A DNA stretch of 64,000 bases. Origin: an uncultured bacterium. GTDB lineage: Bacteria > Patescibacteriota > Minisyncoccia > UBA6257 > 2-01-FULL-56-20. A program made the position numbers and the translations under genes. The notes under the pieces were generated by a model that saw nothing but the letters and a program-made list of their open reading frames with translations, was not told the DNA's origin and ran no database searches. The stretch spans positions 650,880 to 714,879 of the forward strand of contig OY970382.1 in NCBI GenBank assembly GCA_963719425.1, read 5' to 3'. This document shows positions 2,416 to 48,589 of this stretch, in pieces; the first letter of the stretch is position 1, and the number at the start of each line of letters is the position of its first letter.

Positions 2416-2683
2416 TTGGGGGAGGAATTTGGGCGCGCCATACGCGAAGCCCCGAGGCCAGCAGGCCGAGGGGCTGAGCACACCATTTCGGAGGGGGTCT
2501 AGCGGAGTGAAGTAGGACTTTGGATTTTGTCGGGCGATGGTCGGAAAGCCCAGATTTTTCGGGGCAATCTTGATCCGCTACCCCTTCAAATTGGCGCGGG
2601 GCAATTGAAGGGGTATTTGAAGGGGTGGATTGCTATGCTATTCTCTCAAAATAGGTTCGAGCAAAGGCCAGAATTTCACCGCC
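2416..2683. repeat. Right copy of the perfect 266-bp inverted repeat (IR-R)
   Basis: Reverse complement identical to 578..843. Outer tip ends …GAATTTCACCGC|C. The 16-mer CACCGCCCGTTAGTGC (2677-2692) recurs at 11016-11031. Confidence 0.9.
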
Positions 2684-2843
2684 CGTTAGTGCAGCGGTTC
2701 GAGAGACCTCCCGGCCTCGGATTTTGCCATCTTTTTGAAACGCAGTTTAGGCGATGAAAGTCGGCGAGTGTCTAGGATTCGAACTTTGCATTTTGCGGAT
2801 CAACAAGTAGCCCCCCTGATTATAAAAAGCGGAATGGGTTGGG

Positions 2844-4816: not shown

Positions 4817-5529
4817 GCGGGAAGGTTTTTATCGAGATTTTTTTGATTTGGATTCTTCTTGTCTTCAAGAATGAGGCCATCCTTGATAAAAATGATCCGC
4901 TCCGCACAATTCGCCGTATCAGGATCATGGGTGATCAGAATCATCGTGACCTTGTGTTCCTTATTGAGGCGCTGAAAGGTGCCAAGAACGATCTCTCCCG
5001 TTTTTGAGTCAAGATTGCCCGTCGGCTCATCCGCCATAATGACCGAAGGATTATTAACAAGCGATCGAGCGATGGCCACGCGCTGGATCTGCCCTCCTGA
5101 AAGTTGGTTCGATTTATGTGTCCACCGATTTTCGGGAAGTCCTGCCGACTGAAGAGCGGCGGCGGCACGCGGTTCAAGTTCGGCCTCGGGCGCACCGGAA
5201 TATACCAGCGGCAAGGTTACATTGCGCATTACCGTAGTGCGCGGCAGCAAATTGAACGCCTGAAATACGAATCCGATCTTACTCGAACGTATGTCCGCAA
5301 GTTCATCATCGGAAAGCTTTGAAACGTCCTTGCCGTCAAGAAAATATTGTCCCGACGTTGGAGTATCGAGGCATCCCAAGATGTGCATAAGCGTGGACTT
5401 CCCCGATCCGGAGGGGCCGATAATGGCAACGAACTCCCCGTCTTTAATGGAAAACGAGACCCCTTTCAATGCTTGGGTTTCTTCTTCGCCGCTTCCATAG
5501 ACTTTTGTGAGATTTTTGCATTCAATCAT
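4813..5529 (-). CDS. ABC transporter ATP-binding protein (MacB/LolD-like)
   Basis: Walker [10 protein letters not shown], signature [15 protein letters not shown], Walker [12 protein letters not shown]. Confidence 0.9.
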
Positions 5530-5540
5530 GGGATATATAT

Positions 5541-7220
5541 TTAGGCACCGGGGCCGCCCAATAGCCCTCCCGATGATGTCTTGGTAGCGCCCGTAACGGT
5601 ATGCGTTACGATGAGTTCGCCCTCGGTGAGGCCGGAAGTGATAACGGTATTTAAGTTGTCGGAATCTCCCGTTTGCACCGTAACGGAATGCGGGGCGGTA
5701 GTTAATGAAATCGTCGCGCCGTCCTTCGCTCCGGCCACCCCGTCAAGCACCTGCACCGTTGAATTTGACCCCACGCTTAACACTGCTGAGTTAGGGACAA
5801 GGAGCACTCCAGTATCCTGTCCGATAGTTATTGTCGCCGAAACACTCATCCCCGGCTTCACTCCTTGGCCTGAGGCATCGAAAACAATTTTTGCATTATA
5901 ACTCACCACCCCTTGGGTAACCGTACCGATGGTATCGATCTGAGAGACTGTGCCCGTTGCCGTAACGCCGGGCAACGCATTGAAGGTAATGGTTGCTGTA
6001 TCGCCGAGCTTCACCTGCGCCGCATCGACTTCGTTCAACGAGATTTTTGCAATCTGCTCTTTGGTTATGACGGTGGCAATAACCGTATTGGTATTCACGA
6101 CATCGCCGACCGAAACGTTCACGGCGGCAACAACACCGCCAAACGGAGCTTTGATAAAGCTTTGATCGTAGGTGTTCTGAGCGGCTTGCAGTGCCGCCGT
6201 ATCGTTATCGAGCTGCGCCTTCGCCGTTGCGATGTCTTCGGGAAGAACCGGGGCAGTCGTTTGGTTATATGATGCCTGATTTTGTGCAAGCGACGAGGAG
6301 GCAGTTTGAACACTTTGCCCCGCCGCAAGCACGCTTGAAATGTCAGATGAAATGGTCGCCCGCGCCGAATCGACGGTGGTTATATAACTCGTCCCCGCAG
6401 AGGCGGGCACGATATAATTGGTGAGAACGCTCAGCATATCGTTAAGAAACTGGCTGGTCGAAGCGAGGTTGGTGTTGGTTGTCGCGAGCGCCGCAGCAAG
6501 ATCATTGACGTTGATATTCCCCGTGGAGGAGGCGGCCTTTGCAATTTGATCTTGCCATGTCGAAAACATATATTGAGCGCTCAGCCTCTCGTCGTTTATG
6601 TTGTTTTGAAGCTGGGTATTGGTCACGGTACCGCCCGGAACGGAAAATTGCGGATTAGCCGTCGTATTATTTGCATTGCCAAAAAATCCGTTCGTGTTGG
6701 TGAATACCACGGAAAATGTGTCGTTATAGGCACTCTGCAAACGGTTTATGAGTGTTTGTTCGGCATTTTGTAACGAGAGTTGAGCAGAGGCCACCTGCGC
6801 CTGACTCACTGCCACGCTTTGGCTGGTCGCCCCCGCCACCACTTTGTCATAATTTGCCTGTGCGCTTTCAACATTCGCTTTTGCCTGTGTGAGCTGTGTA
6901 AGAGCACTCGCATTACCAATGACCGCAATTTGTTCACCCGCAGTTACGGTGTTGCCTTGTTTTACATCCACCTCAGTAATCGTTGACGCGGACTGAGTCG
7001 TACCCTGCGGTTGGAGATCGACTTGGCTTTCGGCCTCCACTTGGCCAGTGCCATTCACGGTAATTGCAAGATTCCCCTTGGTCACTGTCCCGACCACATA
7101 TTGGGTCGGAGACCCCTTTCCTGCACTCACAATAAAGAATCCGCCAATTACAAGAACGACTACCACAGCAACAGATAGTATCTTGTGCGCTCCCACCCAC
7201 GCAAGAATCTTTTGTTTCAT
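5541..7220 (-). CDS. Efflux periplasmic adaptor subunit (HlyD/MacA family) with long coiled coil
   Basis: 559 aa with N-terminal TM anchor, long Ala/Gln-rich coiled-coil segments and a β-barrel-like C-terminal region. First gene of the three-gene export operon. Confidence 0.8.
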
Positions 7221-7540: not shown

Positions 7541-8896
7541 TTATAAAATGTCGCTCTTCTTTTCAATCACAAGCTGCTTATTCTTCAGCACCAGCCAGCT
7601 CTTGAGGTTCGTTAGCAACTCCCTTTTCTCCGTAATGCTACCCTCTTTGAGGAGGTATTTAGCATAGGTCTTGAAATCGATGTCGTTGGTTTCTTTCCTG
7701 ATTTTCTCCTCGATTTTGTCGGTACCAAACATCGCCCGCTTAAAGTGTTTATAGCGTTCAATCTCTTCTTCAAATTTCTTTTTGACGCCGAGCTCGTTCA
7801 TGTCGATCCGGTCCATGAGTTTCACGAGCTGTGCAATCAAATCCTCCTCGCGGATCGCACCGCCCTTGCAGTGCAGATCCCTCGATCGTGTGCAGGCGTA
7901 ATAGACGTAGCGATGCACGTTCCCATTTTTCTGCTTCTTGAATTTCTCATCGGCCGTAATGCCCGATCCACACTCGGCGCATTTGATGAGCTTTGTAAAA
8001 GCGAACTCTTTTGATTCCCGTTGGATATGATCTCGCTTTAGTTGTTCCTGTACCTTGTCGAATAAATCTCGCGAGATGAGCGGCTCATGCTTCCCATTGT
8101 ACCAGTTGCCACTTTTCTGCGGATACTCGAAGACGCCGTAATAAAAGGTATTTTGGAGAAGAACATAAATATTTCCGAGCGATAAATGGTGGTTGCTCTT
8201 AGTCCGGAAATTCAGCTCAAATTTCAACCAGTGGAAAAGCTTCCTCCCCGACCAGCGGTCGAAGGCCACCTTTTCGAACATCTTCTTGATAACGGGCGCG
8301 CGCTCGGGATCAATAATAACTTGGCATTTCCGCTCGGCGAGCCGTTGCGTGAGATAGCCCGTGGGTGGGGTTGTCGGCCATAAACCCATCTCGCATCGCG
8401 CCCGCTGCCCTCTCTTTATATTCACGCCTCGGTTGTCGTTCTCAAGCTTCGCCTGCGAGCACAGGATCATGAGGAGGAACTTCTCGTTTGGCGAGTTACT
8501 GAATCGCTGACCGTAAGTGCGGATCTCCATAAGGAGCTTCTGGTCCATGAGGTCCACGAGCGATCCAAGGTCGCCCGCGTTCCTTGAGAGCCGATCAGGT
8601 GCCCACGTGAGGATGCCGTTGAACTTGCCCATGCGAAGATCGTTGATCATCTCGTTGAAGATGGGTCGTTGTCCGGTCGCTTTCGCCGAATGGCTCTCGC
8701 GCTTCATCTCCACGATTTCAAGATTCTCGCGCTCGGCAATCTGGAGCATCTCCTTTATCTGCGAATCAATGGAAAGGATCTGACGCTCCTCCGATTCCGT
8801 GCTTTTCCTCGCGTAAAGGCAGTATTTGACCTTTATGGGAGCCTCCACTGCCGTCTGGGTCCCGACTCCCCGGGGATCCGTTGTTTTTGCTGTCAT
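7541..8896 (-). CDS. Large serine recombinase (resolvase domain + recombinase domain + zinc ribbon)
   Basis: 451 aa. N-terminal YARKSTESEERQ…SIDSQ catalytic Ser region, central recombinase domain, C-terminal CAECGSG…C zinc-ribbon and coiled coil. Confidence 0.9.
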   Translation of the reverse strand: MTAKTTDPRGVGTQTAVEAPIKVKYCLYARKSTESEERQILSIDSQIKEMLQIAERENLEIVEMKRESHSAKATGQRPIFNEMINDLRMGKFNGILTWAPDRLSRNAGDLGSLVDLMDQKLLMEIRTYGQRFSNSPNEKFLLMILCSQAKLENDNRGVNIKRGQRARCEMGLWPTTPPTGYLTQRLAERKCQVIIDPERAPVIKKMFEKVAFDRWSGRKLFHWLKFELNFRTKSNHHLSLGNIYVLLQNTFYYGVFEYPQKSGNWYNGKHEPLISRDLFDKVQEQLKRDHIQRESKEFAFTKLIKCAECGSGITADEKFKKQKNGNVHRYVYYACTRSRDLHCKGGAIREEDLIAQLVKLMDRIDMNELGVKKKFEEEIERYKHFKRAMFGTDKIEEKIRKETNDIDFKTYAKYLLKEGSITEKRELLTNLKSWLVLKNKQLVIEKKSDIL

Positions 8897-10920: not shown

Positions 10921-11100
10921 ACCCTAAATCCAAGAGCGACCTCCCGGCTTCAAAAACCGCTTTTCCAAGAAAGCCCTGAAAGGCTCATCAAAAAGAGGTT
11001 CCCGACCGAGGATCACCGCCCGTTAGTGCGTAAGTTTGAGGGGCCGCTTTGCCTAGTTTAACGCATTTCCACCCTGAGCTATAATTAGGGCATCAATAAT

Positions 11101-11274
11101 ATGAAGTTCAATATTTCTTCAAAATATTTTATCCCAATAGGAATCGCGCTCTATATTATTTTTCTTATCATAGGAGGCGTTATCGGCAGCGCAATTGGAA
11201 CAGTCGGATTTATCTTGTTTCTGTTGGGCCTCTTTGACATACTGCGTTCATGGTTTAAGAAGGGCAAGTCATAA
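11101..11274 (+). CDS. Small hypothetical 2-TM peptide (57 aa; below ORF-track cutoff)
   Basis: ATG at 11101 preceded by TATAAT (11079-11084). Product MKFNISSKYFIPIGIALYIIFLIIGGVIGSAIGTVGFILFLLGLFDILRSWFKKGKS has two hydrophobic helices. Confidence 0.35.
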   Translation: MKFNISSKYFIPIGIALYIIFLIIGGVIGSAIGTVGFILFLLGLFDILRSWFKKGKS

Positions 11275-11409: not shown

Positions 11410-11868
11410 ATGATAGATAAAAATCCAAAAGGACTTTTTAGGGAGGATTTGAAAAGCGCCAAAGTTATAAGCGTGGGGAATAAATTTGGTATTGAGGCGG
11501 AATACATTGGTGGCGAAAAAGAATTACTCCACGATTCGTTTAATTCTTCCGATGAAGCTCAAAAGGAGATTGACGAGACTCTAAAATGGGTCGGTAGAAT
11601 TTCCCTATCAGATTCAATTAAGGCGACGGACGAGGTATTTGTTAAGATTGTTGACAACATTAAATGGGAGGCGAATGACCTCGCGCTCATTGGTATCTTA
11701 TTCACATTGATGGTTGGGCTGATTCCCCTGGTCAACCTTCTAGTTAAAAATTTATTCGCAGCCTGTATAATTGCTGTTATTAGCACAACAATCCTAATGG
11801 TGATAATTGCGAAGATAAAGATTGTTAAACGCCCTATAATCATATTCTTTAGATGGCTTTTGAAATAG
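11410..11868 (+). CDS. Hypothetical protein with soluble N-domain and two C-terminal TM helices
   Basis: 152 aa. C-terminal LALIGILFTLMVGLIPLVNLLV and IIAVISTTILMVIIAKI hydrophobic segments. AT-rich. Confidence 0.5.
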   Translation: MIDKNPKGLFREDLKSAKVISVGNKFGIEAEYIGGEKELLHDSFNSSDEAQKEIDETLKWVGRISLSDSIKATDEVFVKIVDNIKWEANDLALIGILFTLMVGLIPLVNLLVKNLFAACIIAVISTTILMVIIAKIKIVKRPIIIFFRWLLK

Positions 11869-11920: not shown

Positions 11921-12010
11921 GGGAAATAGACCCCGACCGACCCGCCTCAAATGACCGATTTCCAAGAACGTTGCGATGGATTGCCAGGATTTGGTTCTAG
12001 ACCTCTTCAC
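11921..12010. repeat. Direct repeat A (~95 nt), upstream flank of the nucleotidyltransferase gene
   Basis: About 80% identical to 12881..12975. Conserved core …CCGAC(C/T)CGCCTCAAA(T/C)G(A/G)CCGATTT(C/T)CAAGAA(C/T)GTTG…GGATTTGGTTC…CACCGC. Confidence 0.7.
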
Positions 12011-12038
12011 ACCGCCAGTTGGGAAAAACACAAATATT

Positions 12039-12830
12039 ATGAGTGAAAATTTAGATCATATACTAGAACACAAAAGATTCGCTCCAACCCCGGAATCGCT
12101 TAGCGCCATGAAAAATATCCGAGACATGCTTGAGGGCATACAAAAAAATATTCCCGGAATCCGCGGGATAGGTTTTATGGGGTCGCGAACAAAAGGCCAG
12201 GAAAAAGCAGATTCAGATTTAGATATTGTTGTTTTTTACGACTGGAATATAGTATTTAACACCAAGAAATATATAAACAAAGAAGTTATTCGAGATTCAT
12301 TTCCAGTAGATATCCCCCTCGATGTGGAGCATTATGGTGCTTTACATTTGGTAGAGATAGGTAAAGGGTCATTAGATTCTGAAATTTCTGACCTTGTTGC
12401 CACAGCCAATGAGATTGCTGAAGGAGAAAATATTCCAGTGGAACAAATTCCCACATTACCTTTCCGGTCACCTTTGAGCAATTTATTTATGCTTGCGGTT
12501 GGTGACCAGGTTTATAAAGCGAGGAGATATGTGCTTGAACAATTACAGTCCAAACCTTACGGAGAAAAATACCTTCAACTTTTAATGAAGCAACTCTCTA
12601 AAGACGAACGCGAAGGAACCAGGAAACGAATAAGCCCGCAATATCCGAATTACCCTAAAACTTTTGAAGACGCAGAAAAGTTTTTTATTACCGAACCCTA
12701 CGATCTTGAAGAATTAAACGCGCCACTTATATCGCCGGCCAAAGAAGAGCCAAGGCGTTTAGGAGAAACTATTACAGCAGCGATTAACAAATTCTATTTG
12801 AACCTTAAATCGAAGAAGGGACGTGAGTAA
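12039..12830 (+). CDS. Nucleotidyltransferase-domain protein (pol-β/minimal-NTase fold with C-terminal helical domain)
   Basis: GIGFMGSRTKGQEKADSDLDIVVFYD (GS…DxD) plus a third acidic residue at DIPLDVEH about 30 aa later. Start placed at ATG 12039 because the upstream part of ORF 11976 overlaps repeat A. Gene is about 27-30% GC. Confidence 0.7.
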   Translation: MSENLDHILEHKRFAPTPESLSAMKNIRDMLEGIQKNIPGIRGIGFMGSRTKGQEKADSDLDIVVFYDWNIVFNTKKYINKEVIRDSFPVDIPLDVEHYGALHLVEIGKGSLDSEISDLVATANEIAEGENIPVEQIPTLPFRSPLSNLFMLAVGDQVYKARRYVLEQLQSKPYGEKYLQLLMKQLSKDEREGTRKRISPQYPNYPKTFEDAEKFFITEPYDLEELNAPLISPAKEEPRRLGETITAAINKFYLNLKSKKGRE

Positions 12831-12880
12831 TGATCTGAGTTTGTGTAAAAAATTGGGTGCCATCTATATCGTTATAACGG

Positions 12881-12975
12881 AAAATTGAACCCTACCGACT
12901 CGCCTCAAACGGCCGATTTTCAAGAATGTTGTAACGGCTTGCTGGGATTTGGTTCCCGACCGAGGAACACCGCAG
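12881..12975. repeat. Direct repeat B (~95 nt), downstream flank of the nucleotidyltransferase gene
   Basis: Aligns with 11921..12010. Ends GGTTCCCGACCGAGGAACACCGC, sharing GGTTCCCGACCGAGGA(T/A)CACCGC with 10999..11021. Confidence 0.7.
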
Positions 12976-28868: not shown

Positions 28869-28904
28869 ATTTTATCATTTCGACTAATGCGCACGAGGTA
28901 GGAT

Positions 28905-28934
28905 TCGAACAAAAAAGCGCTGCCTCACGCTTTT
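28905..28934 (-). terminator. Rho-independent terminator downstream of gyrB
   Basis: Minus strand forms AAAAGCG-TGAGGCAG-CGCTTTTTTG (7-bp stem plus U-run). An additional 11-bp-stem hairpin lies at about 28985-29031. Confidence 0.5.
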
Positions 28935-37170: not shown

Positions 37171-37929
37171 ATGAAAGAAACACGCATCCTTATGGGCATG
37201 CCGGTTACGGTGGAGATCGTGGATGCGGCAGATGCAAAAACCGCAGAAGAAGCCGTGCGCGCAGTGTTCAATTATTTCAGATACGTAGACGAAAAATTCA
37301 GCACCTACAAAGACATGAGTGAGGTCACGGCGATCAATGAGGGACGCCTGCACGCACGCGACTGGAGTGAGGACATGAAAACGATCTTCGCGCTCGCGGA
37401 GGAGACGAAGCGGCTCACCGACGGCTATTTTGACATCCAGCGGCCGGACGGCACGTACGACCCGTCGGGCATAGTGAAGGGCTGGGCAATCCGGAATGCC
37501 GCGAATCTGATAGAAAAACGCGGCTTCAAAAATTTCTACGTGGATGCAGGCGGCGACATTCAAACGCACGGCACGAACGCGGAGGACAAAAAGTGGGCAG
37601 TGGGGATCAAAAATCCGTGGAATGAGAACGAAAGTGTGAAAGTGGTGTACGCAAGCGGCGAGGGCATCGCGACCTCGGGAATCTACATCCGCGGCGGGCA
37701 CATTTATAATCCGAAAACTGGCAGAGCGGCGGATGAGATCGTAAGTTTGACCGTTGTGGGGCCGGACGTCTACGAAGCGGACCGCTTCGCGACCGCCGCG
37801 TTCGCCATGGGCCGCGCGGGCATTCATTTCATAGAAAAGTTGGATGGCTTTGAGGGGTACCTGATAGATAAAAACAAAACGGCGACCATGACGAAAGGAT
37901 TTGAAAAATATGCTCAACGCAATAGATAG
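37171..37929 (+). CDS. apbE: FAD:protein FMN transferase (ApbE family)
   Basis: GYFDI…, DPSGIVKGWA, YVDAGGDI and ATSGIYIRGG ApbE motifs. Start moved to ATG 37171 just after the upstream stop. Confidence 0.8.
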   Translation: MKETRILMGMPVTVEIVDAADAKTAEEAVRAVFNYFRYVDEKFSTYKDMSEVTAINEGRLHARDWSEDMKTIFALAEETKRLTDGYFDIQRPDGTYDPSGIVKGWAIRNAANLIEKRGFKNFYVDAGGDIQTHGTNAEDKKWAVGIKNPWNENESVKVVYASGEGIATSGIYIRGGHIYNPKTGRAADEIVSLTVVGPDVYEADRFATAAFAMGRAGIHFIEKLDGFEGYLIDKNKTATMTKGFEKYAQRNR

Positions 37930-39442
37930 CTTCCTCAACCGGATCACGATGTACTGGCTCCTGCTCTATGTGCTCGCCGCGTCCCTTGTGATCGCCGCCG
38001 CGTTCGGCGCCCTGGGCATCCTTCCCTATTCGCCGGTCGCAATCGCGTTTTCAACCGCAGTGCTCCTCGCCGTCGCATGGATCACAAACCAGCTCTTCGC
38101 AAAAACCTTCGGCGCGCAACCGAACGTGGAATCCGTCTACATCACGGCGCTCATTTTGGCGCTCATCATCGCGCCCGTCATGCCTTCCGGCATCCCTGCC
38201 AATATGACAGGCATCTCGTTCCTTATTTGGGCGGCGGTGTGGGCAATGGCGTGCAAATACATGCTCGCAACCAGGAAAAAACATTTCTTTAACCCGGCGG
38301 CCTTCGCGGTCGCGCTCACCGCCCTCACCATCAATCAATCCGCGAATTGGTGGATTGGCGGAAATCTGCCCATGCTCGCCTTTGTTTTGATCGGCGGGTT
38401 TCTCATCGTGCGGAAGATACGACGCTTTGATCTCGTCCTTAGCTTTCTTACCGTTGGTCTTGCGACGGTCTTGCTCACAAACAGCGGCGAGAATCCGCTG
38501 ACCGCACTCCAACAGGTGTTCCTCCATACGCCGATCTTTTTCCTCGCAGCAGTGATGCTCACGGAACCATTGACAACACCTCCCACGCGCACGGGAAGAA
38601 TCGCCTACGGCGCGCTCGTCGGATTTCTCTTTGCGCCCGCAATCCATCTCGGCTCCATCTATTCCACGCCGGAGCTCGCGCTTCTTGTCGGCAACGTTTT
38701 TTCATATTTCATAAGCCCGAAAGGAAAATATATGTTCTCTCTCAAAAAGAAAGCCCAGACCGGTACCGACACGTACGACTTCGCGTTTGGAACGAAGGAG
38801 CCAATCTCTTTCCGCCCTGGCCAATATATGGAGTGGACTTTGGGGCATAAAAAAAGCGACAGCCGCGGCAACCGGCGCTACTTTACCATCGCCTCGTCGC
38901 CCACCGAGCCCGCACTGCACCTCGGCGTGAAATTTTACGAGCCCGCAAGCAGTTTCAAAAAGCGCATGCGTGCCCTGCAGCCGGGCGATGAAATCGTTGG
39001 CGGACAGCTTGCGGGAGATTTTGTGCTGCCGAAGGACGAACGCAAAAAACTTGTCTTCCTCGCCGGCGGCATTGGTATCACGCCCTTCCGCAGCATGGTC
39101 AAATATCTCGCGGATTGCGAAGAAAAACGGGACATTGTGCTCCTCTATTCAAACCGCACCGCGGACGAGATCGCCTACCGCGAAATTTTCGACGAGGCGG
39201 CGCACACGATCGGGCTCAAGACGATCTATGCCGTAACGAGTACGGAAGGGACGCTCCCGCCGAACGGGTACCGCGGACGCATTGATGCCGGCCTTATCGT
39301 GAAAACCATTCCCGATTATCGTGAGCGGACTTTTTACATTTCCGGAACGCGTGCGATGGTGACTTCGCTCCGCGAAACGCTCCGCGCGATGCATATTCCC
39401 GGCCGCCACATCAAAACCGACTTCTTCCCGGGGTTCGTATAG
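37901..39442 (+). CDS. Membrane oxidoreductase: polytopic N-terminal domain fused to ferredoxin-NADP reductase-like FAD/NAD(P)-binding domain
   Basis: About 290-aa multi-TM N-terminus, then RRYFTIASSP (RxYS FAD motif), GGQLAGDF, LAGGIGITPF (NAD(P) motif) and a C-terminal YISGTRAM region. Confidence 0.75.
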   Translation: MKNMLNAIDSFLNRITMYWLLLYVLAASLVIAAAFGALGILPYSPVAIAFSTAVLLAVAWITNQLFAKTFGAQPNVESVYITALILALIIAPVMPSGIPANMTGISFLIWAAVWAMACKYMLATRKKHFFNPAAFAVALTALTINQSANWWIGGNLPMLAFVLIGGFLIVRKIRRFDLVLSFLTVGLATVLLTNSGENPLTALQQVFLHTPIFFLAAVMLTEPLTTPPTRTGRIAYGALVGFLFAPAIHLGSIYSTPELALLVGNVFSYFISPKGKYMFSLKKKAQTGTDTYDFAFGTKEPISFRPGQYMEWTLGHKKSDSRGNRRYFTIASSPTEPALHLGVKFYEPASSFKKRMRALQPGDEIVGGQLAGDFVLPKDERKKLVFLAGGIGITPFRSMVKYLADCEEKRDIVLLYSNRTADEIAYREIFDEAAHTIGLKTIYAVTSTEGTLPPNGYRGRIDAGLIVKTIPDYRERTFYISGTRAMVTSLRETLRAMHIPGRHIKTDFFPGFV

Positions 39443-41203: not shown

Positions 41204-41642
41204 GAGAGAACCTATCCCGAACCGTGGGAACGTACCTCATAACAAAGTCTTGCAGGTCAGTACCTTCAATGGGATAGGTATCTACGAAATATAACCTATT
41301 CCCCTGATTATTCTTTTTATCTTGGCCGAAAATAAAATTTTCCCCTTTTAGATCGGGAGTTAAGAAGTGTGGTATCGGATCGCTGCCGTAGTAAAAAAGA
41401 TTGTTTATATAAGTATCAATGGCTCGCCTCAAGAATAACCTAAGCTGCTCGGCTACTTTTTCATCATATTTCAAATGATCTAAATTCTGCCCCTCGATCC
41501 TGTCCTGGATTATATACACGGTTTTTTTACCGCGCTCGTTTTTACCGACAACGAGTTGACTGTTCGGGATAAATTCCCCGAAGTTTTCTTTCAAAAAATC
41601 TAGGTTGGATTTGATATGGTCGGGGTCTGCCAACGGGTGCAC
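41094..41642 (-). CDS. Hypothetical protein
   Basis: 182-aa ORF, no recognisable motifs. Confidence 0.45.
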   Translation of the reverse strand: MHPLADPDHIKSNLDFLKENFGEFIPNSQLVVGKNERGKKTVYIIQDRIEGQNLDHLKYDEKVAEQLRLFLRRAIDTYINNLFYYGSDPIPHFLTPDLKGENFIFGQDKKNNQGNRLYFVDTYPIEGTDLQDFVMRYVPTVRDRFSRDWRKIIDEFREEADDRIRRYLQENKGKIKRIPFEN

Positions 41643-41804
41643 GCCTTCTTCATCGCCCTTTTTCCACTCCGTCCTCGCAACTTTTGCGATAAGATCGGGA
41701 TCGTCAACTGGTACTTTTACTTCAAAGTATTTTCCTCCGCCGACGTCCTCTAGTTCACGAAGGGGGGTTTCGTCGGGAATGGAAGCTTGCGGAACTCGGA
41801 CTCG

Positions 41805-42035
41805 AAAAAGTTCGAATCCTTGCCCCCTGCGACTTTTCGTCGCCTAATCTGACCTTCTGCAAGTATTGGGAAGCCGAGGGGGGACTGTCCCTCGAACGGG
41901 CGCACAACCCTGCGGGAGCGAACCGACACCAACTAAACTCGAAATAAGTATTGAAAAATCTGCATTTTTATTTCCCGCTTTGCCCCGAATTGGTTCGAAT
42001 CTCATCCGGGTCGTTAAAATTATTCCGGTTTCTTT
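41805..42035. repeat. Intergenic repeat family, copy 1 (~230 nt)
   Basis: About 75% identical to 43880..44105. Starts AAAAGTTCGAATCC, ends GGTTCGAATCTCATCC. Internal GAGGGGGGACTGTCCCTCGAACGGGCGCACAACCCTGCGGGAGCGAACCGAC block. Confidence 0.75.
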
Positions 42036-42054
42036 CCATAACCTGGTCCGAGGG

Positions 42055-43794
42055 TTACGCTACTTCTGTCTGGTAACACCGTTCGCAATATACCATCTCG
42101 GGTTGGTCTGGAGCGTATGGGGTTTCAAACTCAACTGGACATCTGGCGGTATGCTCGTGCTTCTCTTTCGCACACATGCATTGCCGATGCCACAATTCCA
42201 AAGGATTGCGCATAGCGAACCGTTCGTAATGCCGGCAATTTGGACAAAGATGGGGTAGCGGTATTCCACGCGCACGATAGAACGCAAGTTCATTTGGTAT
42301 TATTTTGAATGCCGCGGTGCACTGATGCAAACACTTTTCTTTATGCTCACACTCAATGATGTCCTCAAGGATTTTGTCGCTCGCTTCGCCAATCAAATCG
42401 GGGATATCGATGTTTTTCCGCGTCACCGCGTAATCTCTGGCATCCGTGTCTCTCCACCGAAATCCTTTGGCTACGGCTTCATTTTTTGTCAGTGGGAAAT
42501 ATTGCTGCGTGAGCGATTCATTGTATGCATACGGGCAAAAATCAAGCGGGAAAAATTCTCCGTATTTCCACGCCCGACCCCGCCGGTCAACATACGGCAT
42601 CTCGTTCATGTGCGCGATAATCTTAGGAAGAAGTGCTTCATATTCTTCTTTTGAGTATTGTTTGTTGAGAATGCAATACTGTTTATTCCTTATCCCGATG
42701 CAGCCGAACAAGTTACTGCCGGAAGTTTGATTTTCGCAGTAAGCAATATTGTTGCCCTGAGGATTCGTGTTCATGATAAATTTTGCGTTCTGGCTAGGAG
42801 AACCGACGTTAATACCCTCGTAGATCAGCTCGCCCCCCGCAAATCCGAACGCGTCGTAGGTGTCTTTGGAGCGGAAAACTCGACAGGTATATTTCACATC
42901 TTCCAGATCAAATCCCTCAAATACCATTTTGCTGTTCTTCGCGTTCTCAATATCGTCTCCGGTGGCATTAGTAGTTTTCTCAAGATAGGCATATTTATGG
43001 ATCGCCCCTCGCTTCATTTTTTGGAATTCCGCTTTCAATGATTCACTTGCTGCGTGGCTTGCAAGATTAACTTCCTTTATTTTCTGTTCATATTCTCCTT
43101 TCGCGAGCTGTTGATTACGAAATACGTATTGCTTGTTGCGGAGATTACTACTCATAAAACAGCGTTGGCAATTTCTACAATCGAAAAGAAATGAGCATTG
43201 GATACAATCCGAGCAATCCAGAAGGTATTCTGATTGAAACACGCGAGAGCAACCTACATTTTCGTACACGAGCTCTCCTTTGTTTACGCTGTAAGAATCG
43301 TACACCTGGCGACTGCCAGATACGGTGCGCGAATAGTAGATCTCTTCGCTTTCAACAATAGAAAAAGAAAGGTATGTATTGTGGGCGTCTTTGAGATAGC
43401 TGGAATACGCTGCATTTAGGTTATTTCCATACTCCTGAAGCGGCAAAATGGGGACGGTCTTTTTGAGTTCCGCATATTGTTCAAAAAACGGTTTTTTGAA
43501 ATCATAATCCCTGCCGTACAACATGGGATCCCATTTGTCGCTCCACCAACAATCCCGGCAGTACACAACAAAATCTGACTCTGGAGCGTAGTGCGCAATG
43601 GTGCGCTTATGACAAAGATCGCAGTTTCTTGGGTAGAGAGTTCTCTCATTCCTAAAATAGAGTCGTCGTACGAGGCGACACTGAGGGCACCAGGTCGGCG
43701 GCGGCACTTTAATTTTCTCATAGAACGTGAAATCTTCCGGTTCTATTGTAAACTGGGTTTTGCAGTTCTGACACACCCTTATTTCCTGCTCCAT
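42055..43794 (-). CDS. Hypothetical Cys-rich protein with multiple CxxC pairs (zinc-ribbon-like)
   Basis: Start set at MEQEIRVCQNCKTQF (ATG 43794, preceded by GAGGT) because the 5' part of ORF 42055..44028 overlaps repeat copy 2. Repeated CxxC…CxxC modules throughout. Confidence 0.6.
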   Translation of the reverse strand: MEQEIRVCQNCKTQFTIEPEDFTFYEKIKVPPPTWCPQCRLVRRLYFRNERTLYPRNCDLCHKRTIAHYAPESDFVVYCRDCWWSDKWDPMLYGRDYDFKKPFFEQYAELKKTVPILPLQEYGNNLNAAYSSYLKDAHNTYLSFSIVESEEIYYSRTVSGSRQVYDSYSVNKGELVYENVGCSRVFQSEYLLDCSDCIQCSFLFDCRNCQRCFMSSNLRNKQYVFRNQQLAKGEYEQKIKEVNLASHAASESLKAEFQKMKRGAIHKYAYLEKTTNATGDDIENAKNSKMVFEGFDLEDVKYTCRVFRSKDTYDAFGFAGGELIYEGINVGSPSQNAKFIMNTNPQGNNIAYCENQTSGSNLFGCIGIRNKQYCILNKQYSKEEYEALLPKIIAHMNEMPYVDRRGRAWKYGEFFPLDFCPYAYNESLTQQYFPLTKNEAVAKGFRWRDTDARDYAVTRKNIDIPDLIGEASDKILEDIIECEHKEKCLHQCTAAFKIIPNELAFYRARGIPLPHLCPNCRHYERFAMRNPLELWHRQCMCAKEKHEHTARCPVEFETPYAPDQPEMVYCERCYQTEVA

Positions 43795-43879
43795 TACCTC
43801 AATTCTATCAGAACGAGAAATTGTAGGCCTTTTGGTCTGTCCGATACTCAAACTGGTCGCTCTGGCAGTGAGCCCATTA

Positions 43880-44105
43880 GCATAATTAACGAAAAGTTCG
43901 AATCCTGGCGCCCTGCTCGGATTCGTGACATAAACTGAGCTCCCGGAAGCATTGAAAAACCGAGGGGGAGCCGTCCCTCGAACGAGCGCACAATCCTGCG
44001 GAGGCGAACCGACTATCACTAGTCTCAAAAAAGTATTGAAAAAACCTACATTTTATTTTTCTGCTCTGCACTAATTCGGTTCGAATCTCGTCCAGGTCGT
44101 TCAAC
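43880..44105. repeat. Intergenic repeat family, copy 2 (~225 nt)
   Basis: Aligns with copies at 41805 and 48345. Causes the shared KFESWRPARIRD(I/V)N peptide in spurious ORFs 43591..43938 and 48171..48398. Confidence 0.75.
43951..43980 (-). terminator. Rho-independent-terminator-like hairpin within repeat copy 2
   Basis: Minus strand forms CGAGGG-ACGGCTCC-CCCTCG then GTTTTTC. Lies 125 nt downstream of the 44105 stop. Equivalent hairpins occur in the other two copies. Confidence 0.45.
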
Positions 44106-45877
44106 TACAACCCCGTAATCACCCCCTTCTGAATATCCCCTTGAAGCTGGGAGCCGCTTCTCTCGGAAAGATTATATAGCCATTCTATGGCTTGCGCAGT
44201 GGGCATAATGTTTGGCTGACTTCTTGCGCTCCGTACTGGAATGAGCTGGCAGGTAACTCCCGAATCACTGAATTGCAGCTCTACCATCAACTCATTTTGA
44301 GTATCATCGGAAAAATATTGATCGAAAATGAAATTGCCGAGTGAATAGAAAATCAACTTACCCTTATATTTTTCTATACCCTCGACAACGTGCGGATGTG
44401 CACCGATGATCATGTTGGCTCCTGCATCTATGAGATCGTGGGCAAGTGACTGTTGCTGTTGATTCTCCGTCAGGCTGTATTCGTCTCCCCAGTGCGCAAG
44501 GACGATAAGAAAAGCATCCGGCTGTTCTTGCTTAATGTTGGTTATTAGGCTGACAGCGTCTTGTTCCGGGAAATACGGATCGGTGCCATTGATGGCAATG
44601 AAGGCAAATTTCTTTCCGTTGATGAATTTGATGGATGTGTACTTTTTATCAACGCTGTACGGGTTGCCGACGGAGTCTATCGAATAATCTCCAAGATATT
44701 TTTGTGTGCTCAGATAGCCGCTTTCTCCAAGGTCATAAGAATGGTTGTTTGCAAGCGAGAGGACTTTGAAATTATTTTGCGCGAGAAGCTGGGCGACCTT
44801 CGGCGCGAAGGAAAATTGTATTGAAGTGCTCGAGTTTTGCGGTTGATTCGAAGTAATCGGACCTTCCAAATTGCCAATTACCGCATCAAACGCATTGAGC
44901 GATCCTGCAATCTTTTTAAATGGATAACTCTCGCCGTATCGGTTCATGAGCGTAGCAACATATCTTCCGAGCATAATATCTCCCACTGCGGCTACGGTAG
45001 CGGTGGAAGAAGTTGGCACATAAAATTGAGTTATATAACTCGTCGCGCTGGTCAATTTTTCCTTGGTGTAATCTTGAGAATTCTTATCGGCGATGATATT
45101 AGGCGCTGCCCCGAAAATATCTTTCTGCACCCGCATTTGGACGTATTGAGAAGCTATAGAATCGAGGTTGTCCGACTGGTTGAGAGAGAAAAGTTTTTCT
45201 GGGTCGTCGCTTTTAAGAACCGCAAGCGTCTGACGGTCTTTAGTATTGGCAACGGCCTTGGGAAGGTAGTGAGAAAAATCGGTGCTCTGTACGATAAGCG
45301 TGCGTTTATCAATATTTTGTTCTAAGAGATCCACAAATGCGCTGAGTTCGCTCTGCGTCGTACTCTCCTTGAGGGCGATTGCTACCACTGGCACGCCGGG
45401 GAAATAATGCGCCACGAACGGTAGCTCCGCCTCAATGCCATGTTCTCTGTAAAAAAAGTCTGCTGTGGAAACGAACGGCAATTGTGTCAGCTGATCGACA
45501 AAATGGGTGTCTGTTTCAAGTTCGCCCAAAACGGTGCTCAAGTTGCGCCGTGAAATCGAGATGTCGGTACTGCCAAGGTTGTAGTGATCCGGACTCAAAA
45601 TAATAATCCGATCATATGAGCCGCGGGAGGCTAGAAGGAATGCCTGGGCGATGAGGTCCGAGGCGAGAAGGTGATGCGGCACCGTGATGCCGGAAACTTT
45701 TTCATCAAGCGGAGTCCCTGTAGCATTTAAAATCGGCGTTAGGAAAATGGAGGTGTCCGTGAACTCTGGCGGTATCGGCCTTTCCGTATCGGCGTGTGAC
45801 GGGACGACAGACAGGACAAGTCCGACAAAAAACACCGAATAGAGAACAACTCTATATCGTCGAAGCACCTTCGTCAT
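44105..45877 (-). CDS. Secreted fusion protein: Memo-like domain + CapA/PGA_cap metallophosphoesterase-like domain
   Basis: Signal peptide MTKVLRRYRVVLYSVFFVGLVLSVVPSHA (start moved to ATG 45877). N-terminal region with GITVPHH…ILSPDHY (Memo-like). C-terminal VAAVGDIMLGRYV…HWG…GAHPHV (CapA-like). Confidence 0.65.
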   Translation of the reverse strand: MTKVLRRYRVVLYSVFFVGLVLSVVPSHADTERPIPPEFTDTSIFLTPILNATGTPLDEKVSGITVPHHLLASDLIAQAFLLASRGSYDRIIILSPDHYNLGSTDISISRRNLSTVLGELETDTHFVDQLTQLPFVSTADFFYREHGIEAELPFVAHYFPGVPVVAIALKESTTQSELSAFVDLLEQNIDKRTLIVQSTDFSHYLPKAVANTKDRQTLAVLKSDDPEKLFSLNQSDNLDSIASQYVQMRVQKDIFGAAPNIIADKNSQDYTKEKLTSATSYITQFYVPTSSTATVAAVGDIMLGRYVATLMNRYGESYPFKKIAGSLNAFDAVIGNLEGPITSNQPQNSSTSIQFSFAPKVAQLLAQNNFKVLSLANNHSYDLGESGYLSTQKYLGDYSIDSVGNPYSVDKKYTSIKFINGKKFAFIAINGTDPYFPEQDAVSLITNIKQEQPDAFLIVLAHWGDEYSLTENQQQQSLAHDLIDAGANMIIGAHPHVVEGIEKYKGKLIFYSLGNFIFDQYFSDDTQNELMVELQFSDSGVTCQLIPVRSARSQPNIMPTAQAIEWLYNLSERSGSQLQGDIQKGVITGL

Positions 45878-45878
45878 C

Positions 45879-48302
45879 CTACTTGACGATGAGTGATTGG
45901 TACCAGAAGTTTTTTGTCGGAAGTGAGGAGGTGACATTGTATACCCAATTCCTCCATTCCTCATCCGTCAGCCGTTGGCCTCCAAGGGGCTGCGTGAACT
46001 CGTAGTGATTGAACGCGAGTCCGACGACTATGCGGGGGTTATTCTCATCATTAACATAAGTCAGCATGAGATATGGATTTCCGTCACCCTCGTAGAGTAT
46101 CTGGTTAGTAAGCGCATCGGTATGGATGTCGGCGACAAGCGCAGGTTTCCCGGAATCCTTGTCCGGTTCGTCTTGACCGCCGAATGGCTGAGCCATGAAT
46201 GACAAGCTGGTCGTACGGAGTTTTTCGTAATCATCGTCGCTGATTGGTGCCCCATTCATTTCCTTTTCGGCCAACCCATCATAGAAACCTACAATACTCT
46301 TAAAGTCATCGAGCCGCGAGAATGCCGCACTATTTTGAAATAGATTGTATTGGTTGTAGAAATCCTCTGTTCGATTGATGAGTCCTTGAAGTTTTTTCCA
46401 AAAAGCGACATTAGGTTCGACGAACCCTCGAACCAATGGCTGGATCGTGCACTCTTCCTCCCCGCCTCCTTTTTCGGCATAGCTCTGTTTGGCGTACAAA
46501 AGTGTGTCGTGTTTTAGCTCGGTGTACGATCCAAGGAATGTTTGAATTTGTTTATCGGAAAAATTCGGCGATTGCATATAGAGCGGATAGCTGCTGCCAT
46601 ATTGTCCGGTAAGCGTCGAGAGTACATTGAGCCACGCGCTGCCGAGCGAATTTTGCCATTCGTCGGCGGTTATCGCCTGAAGCTGTCCAGATTTTTGGTC
46701 AAGAGCCGCCATGAACCCCGCGATATCGGCTTGGGTAAAACCGCTATTCAAGAGAAACTGCGCTGTGTCGCTTTGCGCTTGCGTGTCCCCGAAAGCCGCT
46801 GGCACAAACAGCGCGGAGGGCATTGATGGCAATCTGGTCTGCGTTGCTTCTTGTCCAGCGGTAAGATCGTTCAAAATCCATGCGTCAAAGGTGAATTTTT
46901 GTCCGAAGATTCTGAATCCCAGAGATTGTTTCAATAGATCAGCCTTCGTTAACGATCCAATATTTGGGTTCACAACAACGCTAGAAAATATCTTAGGGAG
47001 CTTCAATTGACCGATGTTGCTATCCAAAGTGCTAAGGGTTGCGGCGCTCGCCAGATTCTGAGGCGTAGAGTTGAATCCGTTTCCTAGAACGTTGTTAAGG
47101 AAACTTTGCCATTCGGTATATGTGATATCGTCGCTCTGGCCAGCGTAAAAACTTGTCACATCGCTAATGTGTTGCCAGGATGAAAGCGGTACATTGCCAT
47201 CGCTGCTCGTCGCCAAAAAGAGATTGGTGAGAAGATTGATATCTTCCACGCCGATGTCTTTCCCGAGGAAATAGCTGTTGCGGCCAAGGTACATCATCGC
47301 TCTGAAGTACGCACGCAGGGCGGAGTTCTTCGTATAATGGCTTCTTGGCGTGAATTGTGTATAGTCACTTTGCAAATCGTCTTTATACTGACCCCAGAGG
47401 GGCGAGGACGTTATATCGCTTGCAGCGTAAATGAGTTGAAGTTCCGAAAGAGCTTCGCTCGCCAAGTCGGGAGTGAGGAATGAAGAGTATTTTACGAAAA
47501 TCGTTTTCGCGTTGGCAAAACTGTCTATGGTTTGGTCTTGAGTAAGATAGGCGTTTTCGGCATCAGGACCAGAGAAATAGTCAGGTTCCGGCGGGCTTTG
47601 ATTTTCAAGTAGAACCCGAGCGACCGTAAGTTGCGCGAGAATATTCTGATATCGCGCTGCAACATCGGGGGTGGCCTGAGTTATTTCTTGCGCTACGTTG
47701 CCGGTAATCTCGGTCAAAAACTTTTCGAGAGCTGGAGAAAGATCGGTTTGCTCAAGCTCCGCGAGCGAGAGATCGAAGTATTTGTGGTAAGCGTGTAGAA
47801 CGATGTCGGGGGTCACGAACACAGCGTCCTCGGGCGCTCGATAACAGGGGTCATAAGGCCCACCAATTCTATCAAATGCATCGAGCATGCTATCGAAACT
47901 GTAATCAGATACCTGGCTCACAGGCAAGAGCAAAAACTTATTCTGTTCTAAATAATCAGCTTGTGCCTGAGAAAGTTGTAAGTTGTATGCAGTTGCGACG
48001 TTGTCAAGGTTATACGCTTTCCCCACAGTACTCACGCTCGTGAACAAGGCTGATGCTGTTGAGGACTGCGTCGCCATTGATGATGTGACCGCTTCGGTAG
48101 TGGTTGCACTTATGGTAGAAGATGGCTGGATTACAGAAAGTGATTGAGCGGTTGAAGACTCCGTTGTCTGTTGGGTTGGAGTGGTCGGGGAAATGTTTGG
48201 TCTTTTCATAAACACAAAGCCAGCCCCGATTATCGCTATCAGCACAACGGCGACAATGATGCCAATAAGAACTCCGGAGAAGCCGCCCCTCCTAGGGATC
48301 AT
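45879..48302 (-). CDS. Large hypothetical membrane-anchored protein (N-terminal TM, Ser/Thr-rich linker, ~650-aa extracytoplasmic domain)
   Basis: 807-aa ORF with N-terminal GVLIGIIVAVVLIAIIGAGFVF helix followed by a T/S/Q-rich linker. Confidence 0.6.
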   Translation of the reverse strand: MIPRRGGFSGVLIGIIVAVVLIAIIGAGFVFMKRPNISPTTPTQQTTESSTAQSLSVIQPSSTISATTTEAVTSSMATQSSTASALFTSVSTVGKAYNLDNVATAYNLQLSQAQADYLEQNKFLLLPVSQVSDYSFDSMLDAFDRIGGPYDPCYRAPEDAVFVTPDIVLHAYHKYFDLSLAELEQTDLSPALEKFLTEITGNVAQEITQATPDVAARYQNILAQLTVARVLLENQSPPEPDYFSGPDAENAYLTQDQTIDSFANAKTIFVKYSSFLTPDLASEALSELQLIYAASDITSSPLWGQYKDDLQSDYTQFTPRSHYTKNSALRAYFRAMMYLGRNSYFLGKDIGVEDINLLTNLFLATSSDGNVPLSSWQHISDVTSFYAGQSDDITYTEWQSFLNNVLGNGFNSTPQNLASAATLSTLDSNIGQLKLPKIFSSVVVNPNIGSLTKADLLKQSLGFRIFGQKFTFDAWILNDLTAGQEATQTRLPSMPSALFVPAAFGDTQAQSDTAQFLLNSGFTQADIAGFMAALDQKSGQLQAITADEWQNSLGSAWLNVLSTLTGQYGSSYPLYMQSPNFSDKQIQTFLGSYTELKHDTLLYAKQSYAEKGGGEEECTIQPLVRGFVEPNVAFWKKLQGLINRTEDFYNQYNLFQNSAAFSRLDDFKSIVGFYDGLAEKEMNGAPISDDDYEKLRTTSLSFMAQPFGGQDEPDKDSGKPALVADIHTDALTNQILYEGDGNPYLMLTYVNDENNPRIVVGLAFNHYEFTQPLGGQRLTDEEWRNWVYNVTSSLPTKNFWYQSLIVK

Positions 48303-48344
48303 AATGAAATTGTAGCATATGATTTGGCTGTTTTAGGCAGCAGC

Positions 48345-48458
48345 TCCTATAAAAAGTTCGAATCATGGCGCCCTGCTCGGATCCGTGACGTAAACTGATT
48401 CTCCGCGAGCATTGGAAAATATAGGGGGAACTGTCCCGCGAGCGGGTGCACACTCCCG
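48345..48458. repeat. Intergenic repeat family, copy 3 (partial, ~115 nt) abutting the 3' end of tRNA-Ser
   Basis: AAAAGTTCGAATCATGGCGCCCTGCTCGGATCCGTGAC…GGGGGAACTGTCCCGCGAGCGGGTGCACACTCCCGCGG aligns with the first halves of copies 1 and 2. Confidence 0.7.
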
Positions 48459-48545
48459 CGGAAGGGGCGAGATTCGAACTCGCGGTACCATTTCTGGTAC
48501 ACGATCTTTCCAGGATCGCCAGTTAAACCACTCCTGCACCCTTCC
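48459..48545 (-). tRNA. tRNA-Ser (anticodon GGA), class II with long variable arm
   Basis: Minus strand folds as GGAAGGG-TG-CAG/D-loop/CTG-G-CGATC-CTGGAAA-GATCG-variable arm GTACCAGAAATGGTAC-GCGAG-TTCGAAT-CTCGC-CCCTTCC-G. Anticodon loop CTGGAAA gives GGA. No encoded CCA. Confidence 0.85.
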
Positions 48546-48589
48546 CCGTCCCGCGCCATATTTCCGCAAGGAAATCCGGCACCGGGAAA

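Follow-up and report, generated by a model that had tools for sequence, protein, structure and literature searches.

Conserved Ends of Probable Integrative Cassettes Stacked behind tRNA-Ser Genes of Patescibacteria

Genomic islands that lie in tandem behind a small structured-RNA gene are known from Dehalococcoides, in which they occur downstream of the 3' end of ssrA, the transfer-messenger RNA (tmRNA) gene, and are bounded by repeats of that end (PMC3146451). The autonomous islands carry a CcrB-like serine recombinase (DsiB) on the reverse strand beside the attachment (att) site attL, and many integrase-less islands have been interpreted as cis-mobilizable elements joined by accretion (McMurdie et al. 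2011, PMC3146451). Here, we describe a stretch of 64,000 nucleotides (nt) from an uncultured, ultrasmall member of the Patescibacteria (the window; GenBank assembly GCA_963719425.1, contig OY970382.1, positions 650,880 to 714,879 of the forward strand), in which repeats composed of two modules, termed E and X, recur behind a serine transfer RNA gene, tRNA-Ser(GGA), and between the genes downstream of it. Our analysis favors the interpretation that E and X are the conserved left and right ends of small integrative cassettes (E – cargo – X) that carry no recombinase and are situated at tRNA-Ser 3' ends. Tandem accretion at a tRNA or tmRNA gene, a serine recombinase, and islands without an integrase are all known already from Dehalococcoides; what is unusual here is that the ends of the cassettes, in a known kind of genomic island, are long and conserved. 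Patescibacteria, or candidate phyla radiation (CPR), have tiny genomes that are usually called poor in mobile elements.

The Dehalococcoides ssrA islands are the closest published system. Both arrangements comprise tandem islands directly downstream of a small structured-RNA gene, a distal border that repeats the 3' end of that gene, low G+C content with broken synteny, a large serine recombinase (LSR) on the reverse strand beside attL (here in L006, one of the loci, designated by the letter L, that were fetched from public sequence data), and accreted islands that lack an integration module. They differ in that (i) the target here is tRNA-Ser, with at least three isoacceptors, and not tmRNA; (ii) the junction lies one base past the discriminator and not in the T-loop; (iii) the ends are long (115 nt for E and ~105 nt for X) and the tRNA remnant has a fixed 10-nt deletion, whereas the ssrA islands show a 20-bp scar; (iv) the cassettes are very small, i.e., 1 to 4 kb with one to approximately five genes; and (v) the host, with a genome of ~0.9 Mb, belongs to a different phylum.

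The array also resembles integron arrays, in that promoter-less and recombinase-less cassettes appear stacked at one anchor, with the newest expected beside it, and in that a conserved recombination element of 100 to 230 nt lies between cassettes and the enzyme would act in trans. However, there is no IntI, the neighbors being pyrH-like and HtpX genes, and a motif scan of the open reading frames (ORFs) in the window, which is a weak test, returned no tyrosine-recombinase motif. Furthermore, E reads GTTCGAG...TTCGAAC, which in order and bases is not the RYYYAAC...GTTRRRY of attC, and it has no supported long hairpin; cargo lies on either strand (L024), and the anchor is a tRNA gene. We rejected an integron on the grounds of the missing IntI, the absence of the attC signature from both E and X, and the occurrence of cargo on both strands. 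Likewise, P4-like tRNA islands, which employ tyrosine integrases, have an intact tRNA at one end and a tRNA 3' fragment at the other, with tandem accretion possible, but no tyrosine integrase was seen here, the repeat extends ~115 nt past the tRNA, and the crossover would fall outside the tRNA body.

Two-module repeats in the array behind tRNA-Ser(GGA)

An earlier description based on the sequence alone (the sequence-only reading) had claimed three related repeat copies between 41.8 and 48.5 kb. We re-detected them independently by a repeat search (41806-41916, 43892-44002, and 48352-48462; 111 nt, with 77 to 81% identity to the reference copy), in which the two long copies (copies 1 and 2) extended to 213 nt at 74% identity, and blastn gave E-values of 1e-12 to 1e-40. 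The 230-nt unit consists of two modules, i.e., E (~115 nt), which is present in all copies, and X (~105 nt), which is the additional part carried by the two long copies. On the minus strand, which encodes tRNA-Ser and the cargo genes in this array, the order is tRNA-Ser(GGA)|E3 – DUF3160 + Memo-CapA – X2|E2 – CxxC protein – X1|E1. An independent Logan assembly of 6.6 kb (L001) has the identical order, and its ends fall inside the outer repeats. The G+C content of the 41- to 48-kb interval is 45 to 49%, versus 53 to 58% in the flanks on either side.

The anchor of the array, tRNA-Ser(GGA) (48458-48545, minus strand), is the one tRNA that ARAGORN found in the window; it is predicted to be intact and has no encoded CCA. 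It scored 23.7 bits on the Rfam tRNA model, under the gathering threshold of 29, and has an unusual T-stem (GCGAG/CTCGC). The segment from its T-loop to its 3' end constitutes the left (B) arm of the junction. Copy 3 begins within the last bases of this tRNA, which agrees with the earlier observation that it abuts the tRNA 3' end, and E3 (48351-48461, minus strand; repeat search and nhmmer), the tRNA-proximal end of the putative cassette 3, has a CCGC core at 48458-48461 and the word GATTCGAAC at 48356-48364. E3 is the sole E copy with a mutated first block, in which CTCGCG replaces TTCGAG. The cargo of cassette 3 comprises a membrane-anchored DUF3160 protein of 807 amino acids (aa) (45879-48302, minus strand; Pfam, E=2e-132) and a Memo-like/CapA (PGA_cap) fusion (44105-45877, minus strand; Pfam; called gene of 590 aa). 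Its distal end, X2 (43998-44106, minus strand; alignment and a hidden Markov model [HMM] of X, E=2e-29), carries GATTCGAAC at 44079-44087 and terminates in a truncated tRNA-Ser 3' end, GGTTCGCCTCCGC.

Similarly, the proximal end of the putative cassette 2 is E2 (43891-44001, minus strand), in which a terminator-like hairpin at 43960-43981 is followed by TTTTT. The cargo is a CxxC-rich protein of 580 aa (42055-43797, minus strand; ORF, Pfam, and homolog search), and the distal end is X1 (41912-42020, minus strand; X HMM, E=4e-31), with GATTCGAAC at 41993-42001 and GGTTCGCTCCCGC at its terminus. The protein types that the sequence-only reading had named between the copies were recovered by Pfam as a weak treble-clef zinc-finger match, Memo plus PGA_cap, and DUF3160. 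E1 (41805-41915, minus strand; repeat search, nhmmer, and X HMM) is the terminal E, with no X downstream, and would be either the original target-site flank or a solo remnant. Downstream of E1, a frame at 41642-41750 (minus strand) is open for 36 codons upstream of its first possible start, a GTG at 41642; the stretch has no ATG, GTG, or TTG, and the gene start or the frame is uncertain.

With an E HMM, nhmmer located a fourth full E at 2679-2789 (plus strand) and a partial fifth, made up of the 5' 45 nt, at 11015-11058 (plus strand; E=7e-4 and 7e-3), the latter with a left arm of the form GGTTC-N14-CCGC at 10997-11019. E4 is a B-type copy (see below), and its left neighbor is the right arm of an LSR island, not a tRNA. 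The invariant blocks of E, GTGCnnnnGYTCGnGnGAC and GATTCGAAC, are spaced by exactly 68 nt in 4/4 full window copies and by 66 to 69 nt across all copies found. The word GATTCGAAC, which is the minus-strand reading of the GTTCGAATC word noted earlier, occurs 8 times in the window versus 1.3 expected, a count that 0 of 100 shuffles reached. Both X modules start with GATTCGAAC, and the word thus flanks every cargo. At its terminus, the 3' half of E carries GGATTCGAAC, which is the tRNA T-arm word in reverse complement.

The sequence-only reading had offered a miniature inverted-repeat transposable element (MITE) as one alternative, and a generic dispersed intergenic repeat would likewise be conceivable for the 230-nt unit. 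Several copies do occur within 64 kb, and each end has a TTCGAA-containing word, which gives a superficial likeness to terminal repeats. However, these end words are direct and not inverted repeats, save for the palindromic TTCGAA; there is no terminal inverted repeat or target-site duplication, and CCTCCGC is invariant at the right end, in contrast to a left partner that differs between copies. All copies are situated at tRNA-Ser or cassette junctions, and nhmmer revealed no additional ones in the window or in the other fetched loci to which it was applied. A MITE or a generic repeat is therefore hardly tenable.

E, X, and cargo in related genomes

Public genomes and metagenomes were searched for E by means of a pattern that comprises its two blocks alone and no tRNA sequence, and the matches were confirmed by nhmmer. 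This yielded 25 distinct true E copies, and the named matches came, in all but one case, from Patescibacteria metagenome-assembled genomes (Minisyncoccia, 'Saccharibacteria', and Microflora Danica bins). Fourteen of the 25 copies lie directly 3' of a tRNA-Ser called by ARAGORN (anticodon GCT in 9, CGA in 2, and GGA in 3), and 2 further copies adjoin tRNA-Ser-like 3' fragments. Homology begins at CCGC, one base past the discriminator, in 25/25 copies, with a left partner that varies (tRNA, X, the Y and Z arms described below, and others). Likewise, the window is homologous to L016 and L031, which are 'unoccupied' tRNA-Ser(GCT)+E loci, from precisely the CCGC of E4 (2679) onward.

By blastn of the locus against all fetched loci, X was present at places without adjoining E, and matches to the X HMM lie only downstream of A-type E, in the same orientation as E. 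We observed E – cargo – X units in five genomes, namely, tRNA-Ser(GCT)|E – 1.1 kb – X|unrelated DNA (L021), E – 2.9 kb – X|unrelated DNA (L012), E – 2.0 kb – X|unrelated DNA (L020), E – 1.4 kb – X|E (L024), and E – 4.2 kb – X|E – 1.85 kb – X|E (window); what follows X is thus either unrelated DNA or the next E. The 3' end of X is constant in all five, reading GTCGGTTCGCCTCCGC, or GCTCCCGC in X1, and is of the GGTTCG-CCTCCGC type, which corresponds to the tRNA-Ser 3' end minus 10 internal nt. More specifically, the X1 and X2 ends read GGTTCG-C(C/T)(T/C)CCGC, i.e., the start of the tRNA-Ser T-loop plus the acceptor end. The distal border of each unit (X1, X2, L012, L020, L021, and L024) is accordingly a direct repeat of the tRNA-Ser 3' end. 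The cargo is unrelated from unit to unit and includes no recombinase in the five genomes; the sets are a serpin; a PsbP-like protein plus an ABC transporter; DsrE, ArsP, thioredoxin, and ArsR; an unknown 353-aa protein; and, in the window, DUF3160 plus Memo-CapA and the CxxC protein.

Comparison of the tRNA-Ser locus in relatives revealed a syntenic counterpart, L007, with HtpX and pyrH-like proteins 81% and 72% identical to those of the window, respectively. L007 keeps the order pyrH-like – tRNA-Ser(GGA) – E and a homolog of the window gene at 37901-39442, and between these shared flanks it carries ~2.3 kb of unrelated genes versus ~9 kb in the window; the interval behind tRNA-Ser(GGA) is therefore hypervariable. 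Together with the low G+C content, the truncated tRNA-Ser end of X, and the common CCGC core, this comparison supports the leading claim of the sequence-only reading, i.e., tandem islands at a tRNA 3' end. Its view of the repeats as att remnants held for their position at an att boundary, but not for their being mere scars, as they are conserved cassette ends in several genomes with different cargo.

E splits into A and B subfamilies, and because their 5' and 3' halves combine almost freely, with variants found in almost all combinations, the mixed copies would indicate exchange between copies. Such exchange is also what one would expect if E were the native 3' trailer and intrinsic terminator of tRNA-Ser, with extra copies generated by local duplication, gene conversion, and homologous recombination at a recombination-prone spot that is not the end of a mobile unit. 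This explanation, which we consider unlikely, draws further on the hairpin and T-run located 17 to 50 nt past the tRNA end in most copies, on the synteny of B-type E with the downstream gene, and on the LSR islands (see below), which target tRNA-Ser|E and thereby place E on the host side of the site for those islands. However, the X|unrelated-DNA junctions of L012, L020, and L021 are impossible by E-to-E homologous recombination, and the truncated tRNA-Ser 3' end of X stays constant irrespective of the left partner that its unit has. In addition, E stands behind three tRNA-Ser isoacceptors, whose flanks should not remain ~80% alike by descent, and the cargo is unrelated among units.

If E and X are cassette ends, as we favor, the crossover would occur at a core of CCGC(A), one base past the discriminator, with the tRNA-Ser T-arm and acceptor, or an element-borne mimic (X: GGTTCG-CCTCCGC, with its 10-nt internal deletion), to the left of the core and E to its right. 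After insertion, E would be placed directly behind the tRNA, where its short hairpin and T-run could end tRNA-Ser transcription ahead of the cargo. Every later insertion at the same tRNA would displace the older cassettes outward, leaving X|E junctions that resemble the attP of a circular form, and the window could represent two insertion events (cassette 3 with DUF3160 + Memo-CapA, and cassette 2 with the CxxC protein), followed by the terminal E1. We infer that the cassettes move by site-specific recombination at CCGC, which is favored because E-to-E homologous recombination cannot make X|non-E junctions.

Several points weigh against this interpretation. B-type E at tRNA-Ser(GCT) loci, which always occurs without X, is syntenic with the downstream gene (~85% nucleotide identity), so that at least at these loci it could be a native tRNA-Ser flank. 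Every tRNA-Ser gene considered was retrieved via E. DUF3160 and Memo-CapA also occur in L036 (75% identical), the closest Memo-CapA homolog with DNA available, without E or X. For the E – cargo – X units, we observed neither an excised circle nor an unoccupied site, and the model leaves the conserved 3' half of E and the cargo-bracketing GATTCGAAC words unexplained. With regard to the enzyme, no recombinase gene lies inside 41.8 to 48.5 kb, as the sequence-only reading had claimed of an integrase, and the two LSR genes of the window are >33 kb away; moreover, the GGTTCG of the X arm is only 5 nt from the junction, unlike LSR attP geometry.

With regard to how Patescibacteria vary their surface and host-interaction genes, our evidence points to a compact, recurrent loading of small accessory cassettes behind tRNA-Ser, with recombinases apparently provided in trans and cargo that includes secreted and membrane proteins, a serpin, transporters, and redox genes. 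If this holds, E, X, and the CCGC junction would serve as a sequence signature for the flexible gene pool of the CPR in metagenomes, the associated enzymes would be new serine integrases with predicted attB/attP pairs, and a possible reason for assembly breaks at these loci would be at hand. A bolder extension, to which we give only a small chance, is an integron-like gene-capture platform on tRNA-Ser, in which trans-acting LSRs would add promoter-less cassettes, stack them, invert them, and exchange them for one another, the 230-nt X·E junction would be the counterpart of attC, cargo would be swapped within constant ends at a second exchange point located at the GATTCGAAC words, and the LSR inverted repeats would represent an autonomous, invertible version.

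As for the cargo itself, the CxxC protein family has >7000 homologs in Patescibacteria, the nearest being 53% identical. DUF3160 and Memo-CapA form a conserved adjacent gene pair in other genomes, including a JGI contig (sample 3300047160) and L036, and the pair is also found in non-Patescibacteria contexts, beside PSD/PSCyt-domain genes of Planctomycetes-like appearance, which suggests a horizontally acquired functional module. Since DUF3160 and Memo-CapA occur without E and X and the CxxC family is widespread, the cargo genes are ordinary accessory or xenologous genes that lie outside the mechanism.

Two further sites bear related features. L020 has, directly after tRNA-Ser(CGA), a short non-E trailer (3034-3225) with an AT-rich hairpin, a GGATTCGAAC word, and a second tRNA-Ser 3' fragment, GACGTTCGATTCCCTGTACCCTCCGCC, and at 5240-5300 a further Z-type left arm, GTTCGGATTTTAACCAAAAGGCACCGCAG, with no E after it; these features indicate a heterogeneous multi-cassette array. 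In the window, three left-arm-like sites (GGTTC-N14-CCGC) lie at 10997-11019, 11921-12015, and 12879-12973, two of them inside a 95-nt direct repeat of 77% identity. The sites bracket small low-GC genes (11102-11272, 11410-11868, and a nucleotidyltransferase gene at 11976-12830) upstream of a conserved cluster beginning at 13185, and at that position the relatives L004, L009, and L024 carry tRNA-Ser(CGA)+E or E – cargo – X|E. The region at ~11 to 13 kb is probably a second, decayed cassette array.

Large serine recombinases and att-site geometry

LSR genes or LSR-island modules are found within a few kilobases of E in L006, L012, L020, L024, and at the left end of the window. In the window, an LSR N-terminal part, cut by the window edge (3-440, minus strand; Pfam Resolvase and tblastn), is 96% identical at the protein level to the LSR that adjoins tRNA-Ser in L006. 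The island has two Y arms of 266 nt that are 100% complementary in the repeat search; the right inverted repeat (2417-2682, plus strand) ends exactly at the CCGC core that starts E4, and the left inverted copy (578-843, minus strand) is core-joined to the region upstream of the LSR gene, forming an attP-like Y|P' junction. This perfect 266-nt inverted repeat encloses a 1.57-kb segment that encodes a DUF3761 protein (910-1980) and a small membrane protein. A second, complete LSR (7541-8896, minus strand; Pfam Resolvase, Recombinase, and Zn_ribbon_recom) is 35% identical to the first and lies beside an efflux operon (HlyD/ABC/MacB, 3593-7220).

In L006, the LSR gene (Resolvase, Recombinase, and Zn_ribbon_recom) lies on the reverse strand directly 3' of tRNA-Ser, and the 6-bp core CCGCAG is present at 3/3 junctions, i.e., tRNA|P', the internal inverted Y|P', and Y|E. 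This core also marks the exact ends of perfect inverted repeats (130 and ~270 nt), which surround both the LSR gene and a cargo different from that of the window. In both loci, the design has the appearance of a module that could be inverted or could swap its cargo, and an inverted attP-like site lies in its interior. At the DNA level, the window and L006 are 92% identical over the LSR N-terminus and its upstream region (window 1-871) and 88% identical over Y+E; the cargo enclosed by the arms differs, as do the abutting E and the gene downstream. Because cargo and the DNA beyond E differ, and the homology of L016 and L031 begins at CCGC, one LSR element occupies tRNA-Ser|E-type sites in different chromosomal places. 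In L012, in addition, the region just upstream of E contains a truncated LSR and a perfect inverted repeat of 61 nt, and L020 has an LSR 4 kb upstream of its E. Between the 61-nt inverted repeats of L012, an HNH homing-endonuclease-like protein is encoded at 1019-1792 (plus strand).

The junctions have a regular geometry. On the left side of the junction, 15 nt separate it from the T-loop TTCGAA in 14/14 tRNA-linked copies. In 13/14, the TTCGAG of E lies 15 nt to the right, which results in a 42-bp dyad; the exception is window E3 (CTCGCG). In the element-borne arms of the Y, Z, and L033 types, the hexamer is instead 20 to 21 nt from the junction. For serine integrases, the motif for the zinc-ribbon domain is reported to lie 5 bp farther out in attP than in attB (PMC3783163), and by analogy the Y, Z, and L033 arms would fit this outward shift, whereas the X arm, with its GGTTCG 5 nt from the junction, does not. 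The putative sites here share with the attB/attP sites of serine integrases (phage A118/LI, phiC31, and Bxb1; Rutherford et al. 2013, PMC3783163) a length of ~42 bp, an imperfect dyad, and a short core, a distal motif 5 to 6 bp farther out in the element arms (Y and Z) than in the host arm, and hybrid junctions that flank an LSR-bearing island. They differ in the geometry of the X arm and, relative to LI integrase sites, in absolute motif positions that are ~5 bp farther out; unlike phage systems, moreover, the LSR island has an internal inverted attP-like site within perfect inverted repeats of 130 to 270 nt.

Because the X arm misfits LSR geometry, an LSR can be assigned to the E – cargo – X units by inference only, and we regard it as possible, yet short of probable, that an LSR encoded elsewhere in the genome moves them in trans. 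Cassettes that are mobile as described could also be served by a different enzyme encoded elsewhere in the genome, such as a tyrosine recombinase of the phage or Xer-like type. Classical tRNA-targeted islands use tyrosine integrases, and the mismatch between the X arm and LSR attP, as well as the short dyad CTCC-GCA-GGAG around the core, which resembles core-type sites, would suit such an enzyme; the window covers 64 kb of a contig of ~888 kb. However, no tyrosine-recombinase signature was present in the window ORFs (by the motif scan, a weak test) or among the top 25 of 72 Pfam families, and LSR genes or modules lie a few kilobases from E in the five loci named above, with junctions at the same core. 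We therefore judge a non-LSR enzyme to be improbable.

Terminator, folding, and coding properties of E

Most copies of E have a CGAGGG/CCCTCG hairpin with a T-run 17 to 50 nt past the tRNA end (-4 to -16 kcal/mol). More specifically, most A-type copies form a hairpin of -9 to -12 kcal/mol followed by GTTTTT, and B-type copies are weaker. The sequence-only reading had placed a terminator-like hairpin in each of its three copies. This was clear for E2, which the terminator scan flagged at 43981-43960 (7 bp, 5 GC, TTTTT); the hairpin of E1 is without a good T-run, and that of E3 is weaker, with a short stem. We take the 5' half of E to carry a terminator and do not regard E as a structured noncoding RNA (ncRNA).

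An ncRNA, i.e., a small or cis-regulatory RNA that is cotranscribed with tRNA-Ser and freed by tRNA processing, with the repeats as paralogous RNA genes, would account for the strict spacing of the blocks (66 to 69 nt overall and 68 nt in the four window copies) and for the complementarity of the E 3' end to the tRNA T-arm. In four small hand-drawn hairpins, 70% of cells were paired versus 40 to 55% with the partners slid, a count that is biased because the structure was derived from the same sequences; one pair in this set swaps C-G to G-C between the E subfamilies. However, Rfam gave no match in the repeats at the gathering threshold (whole window) or at E<=10 (41.6 to 48.7 kb), and folding of both strands of four copies gave energies like those of shuffled sequences, with z-scores of -0.3 to +0.4 for three copies. 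Covariation in the repeat RNA, a check raised by the sequence-only reading, was also absent: RNAalifold on 25 copies gave -4.9 kcal/mol with 0 compensatory pairs, and only the invariant GTTCGA/TCGAAC paired. In addition, the variable stretch of the E 3' half lacks a common register, and an ncRNA would leave X and the exact DNA junctions unexplained. We thus consider this explanation very improbable.

The proposal of a 3' untranslated region (UTR) module was not upheld either. The cargo gene of L024 lies on the strand opposite to its two flanking E copies, and the gene that window E4 faces is convergent, as it is for the L016 and L031 counterparts of E4, so that E is neither a 3' UTR nor a cargo promoter. 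Consistently, a promoter was rejected because no sigma-70-like match was present in the repeats and because of the convergent (L016 and L031) or opposite-strand (L024) orientation of the genes that E faces. A coding repeat was rejected as well: one frame translates alike among copies, but the substitutions are without third-position bias and copy 3 has an in-frame stop. Likewise, neither an antisense tRNA gene nor a tRNA with an intron was retained, as the T-stem partners are unpaired and ARAGORN and Rfam found nothing; the group I introns of Patescibacteria tRNAs lie in the anticodon loop and are not relevant here (PMC13011429). The idea that the E 3' end repeats the entire tRNA-Ser 3' end in inverted form was convincing for the 11-nt T-arm word only; beyond it, the similarity is weak in B-type copies. 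A phage origin was rejected too, as none of 50,697 phage records matched X+E by blastn, and a pattern scan of viral contigs gave one chance match only, on tRNA-Met. Elsewhere in the window, a lone E-end-like word, GCGCACGAGGTAGGATTCGAAC, followed by AAAAAAGCG, is located in an intergenic region at 28881-28910 (plus strand).

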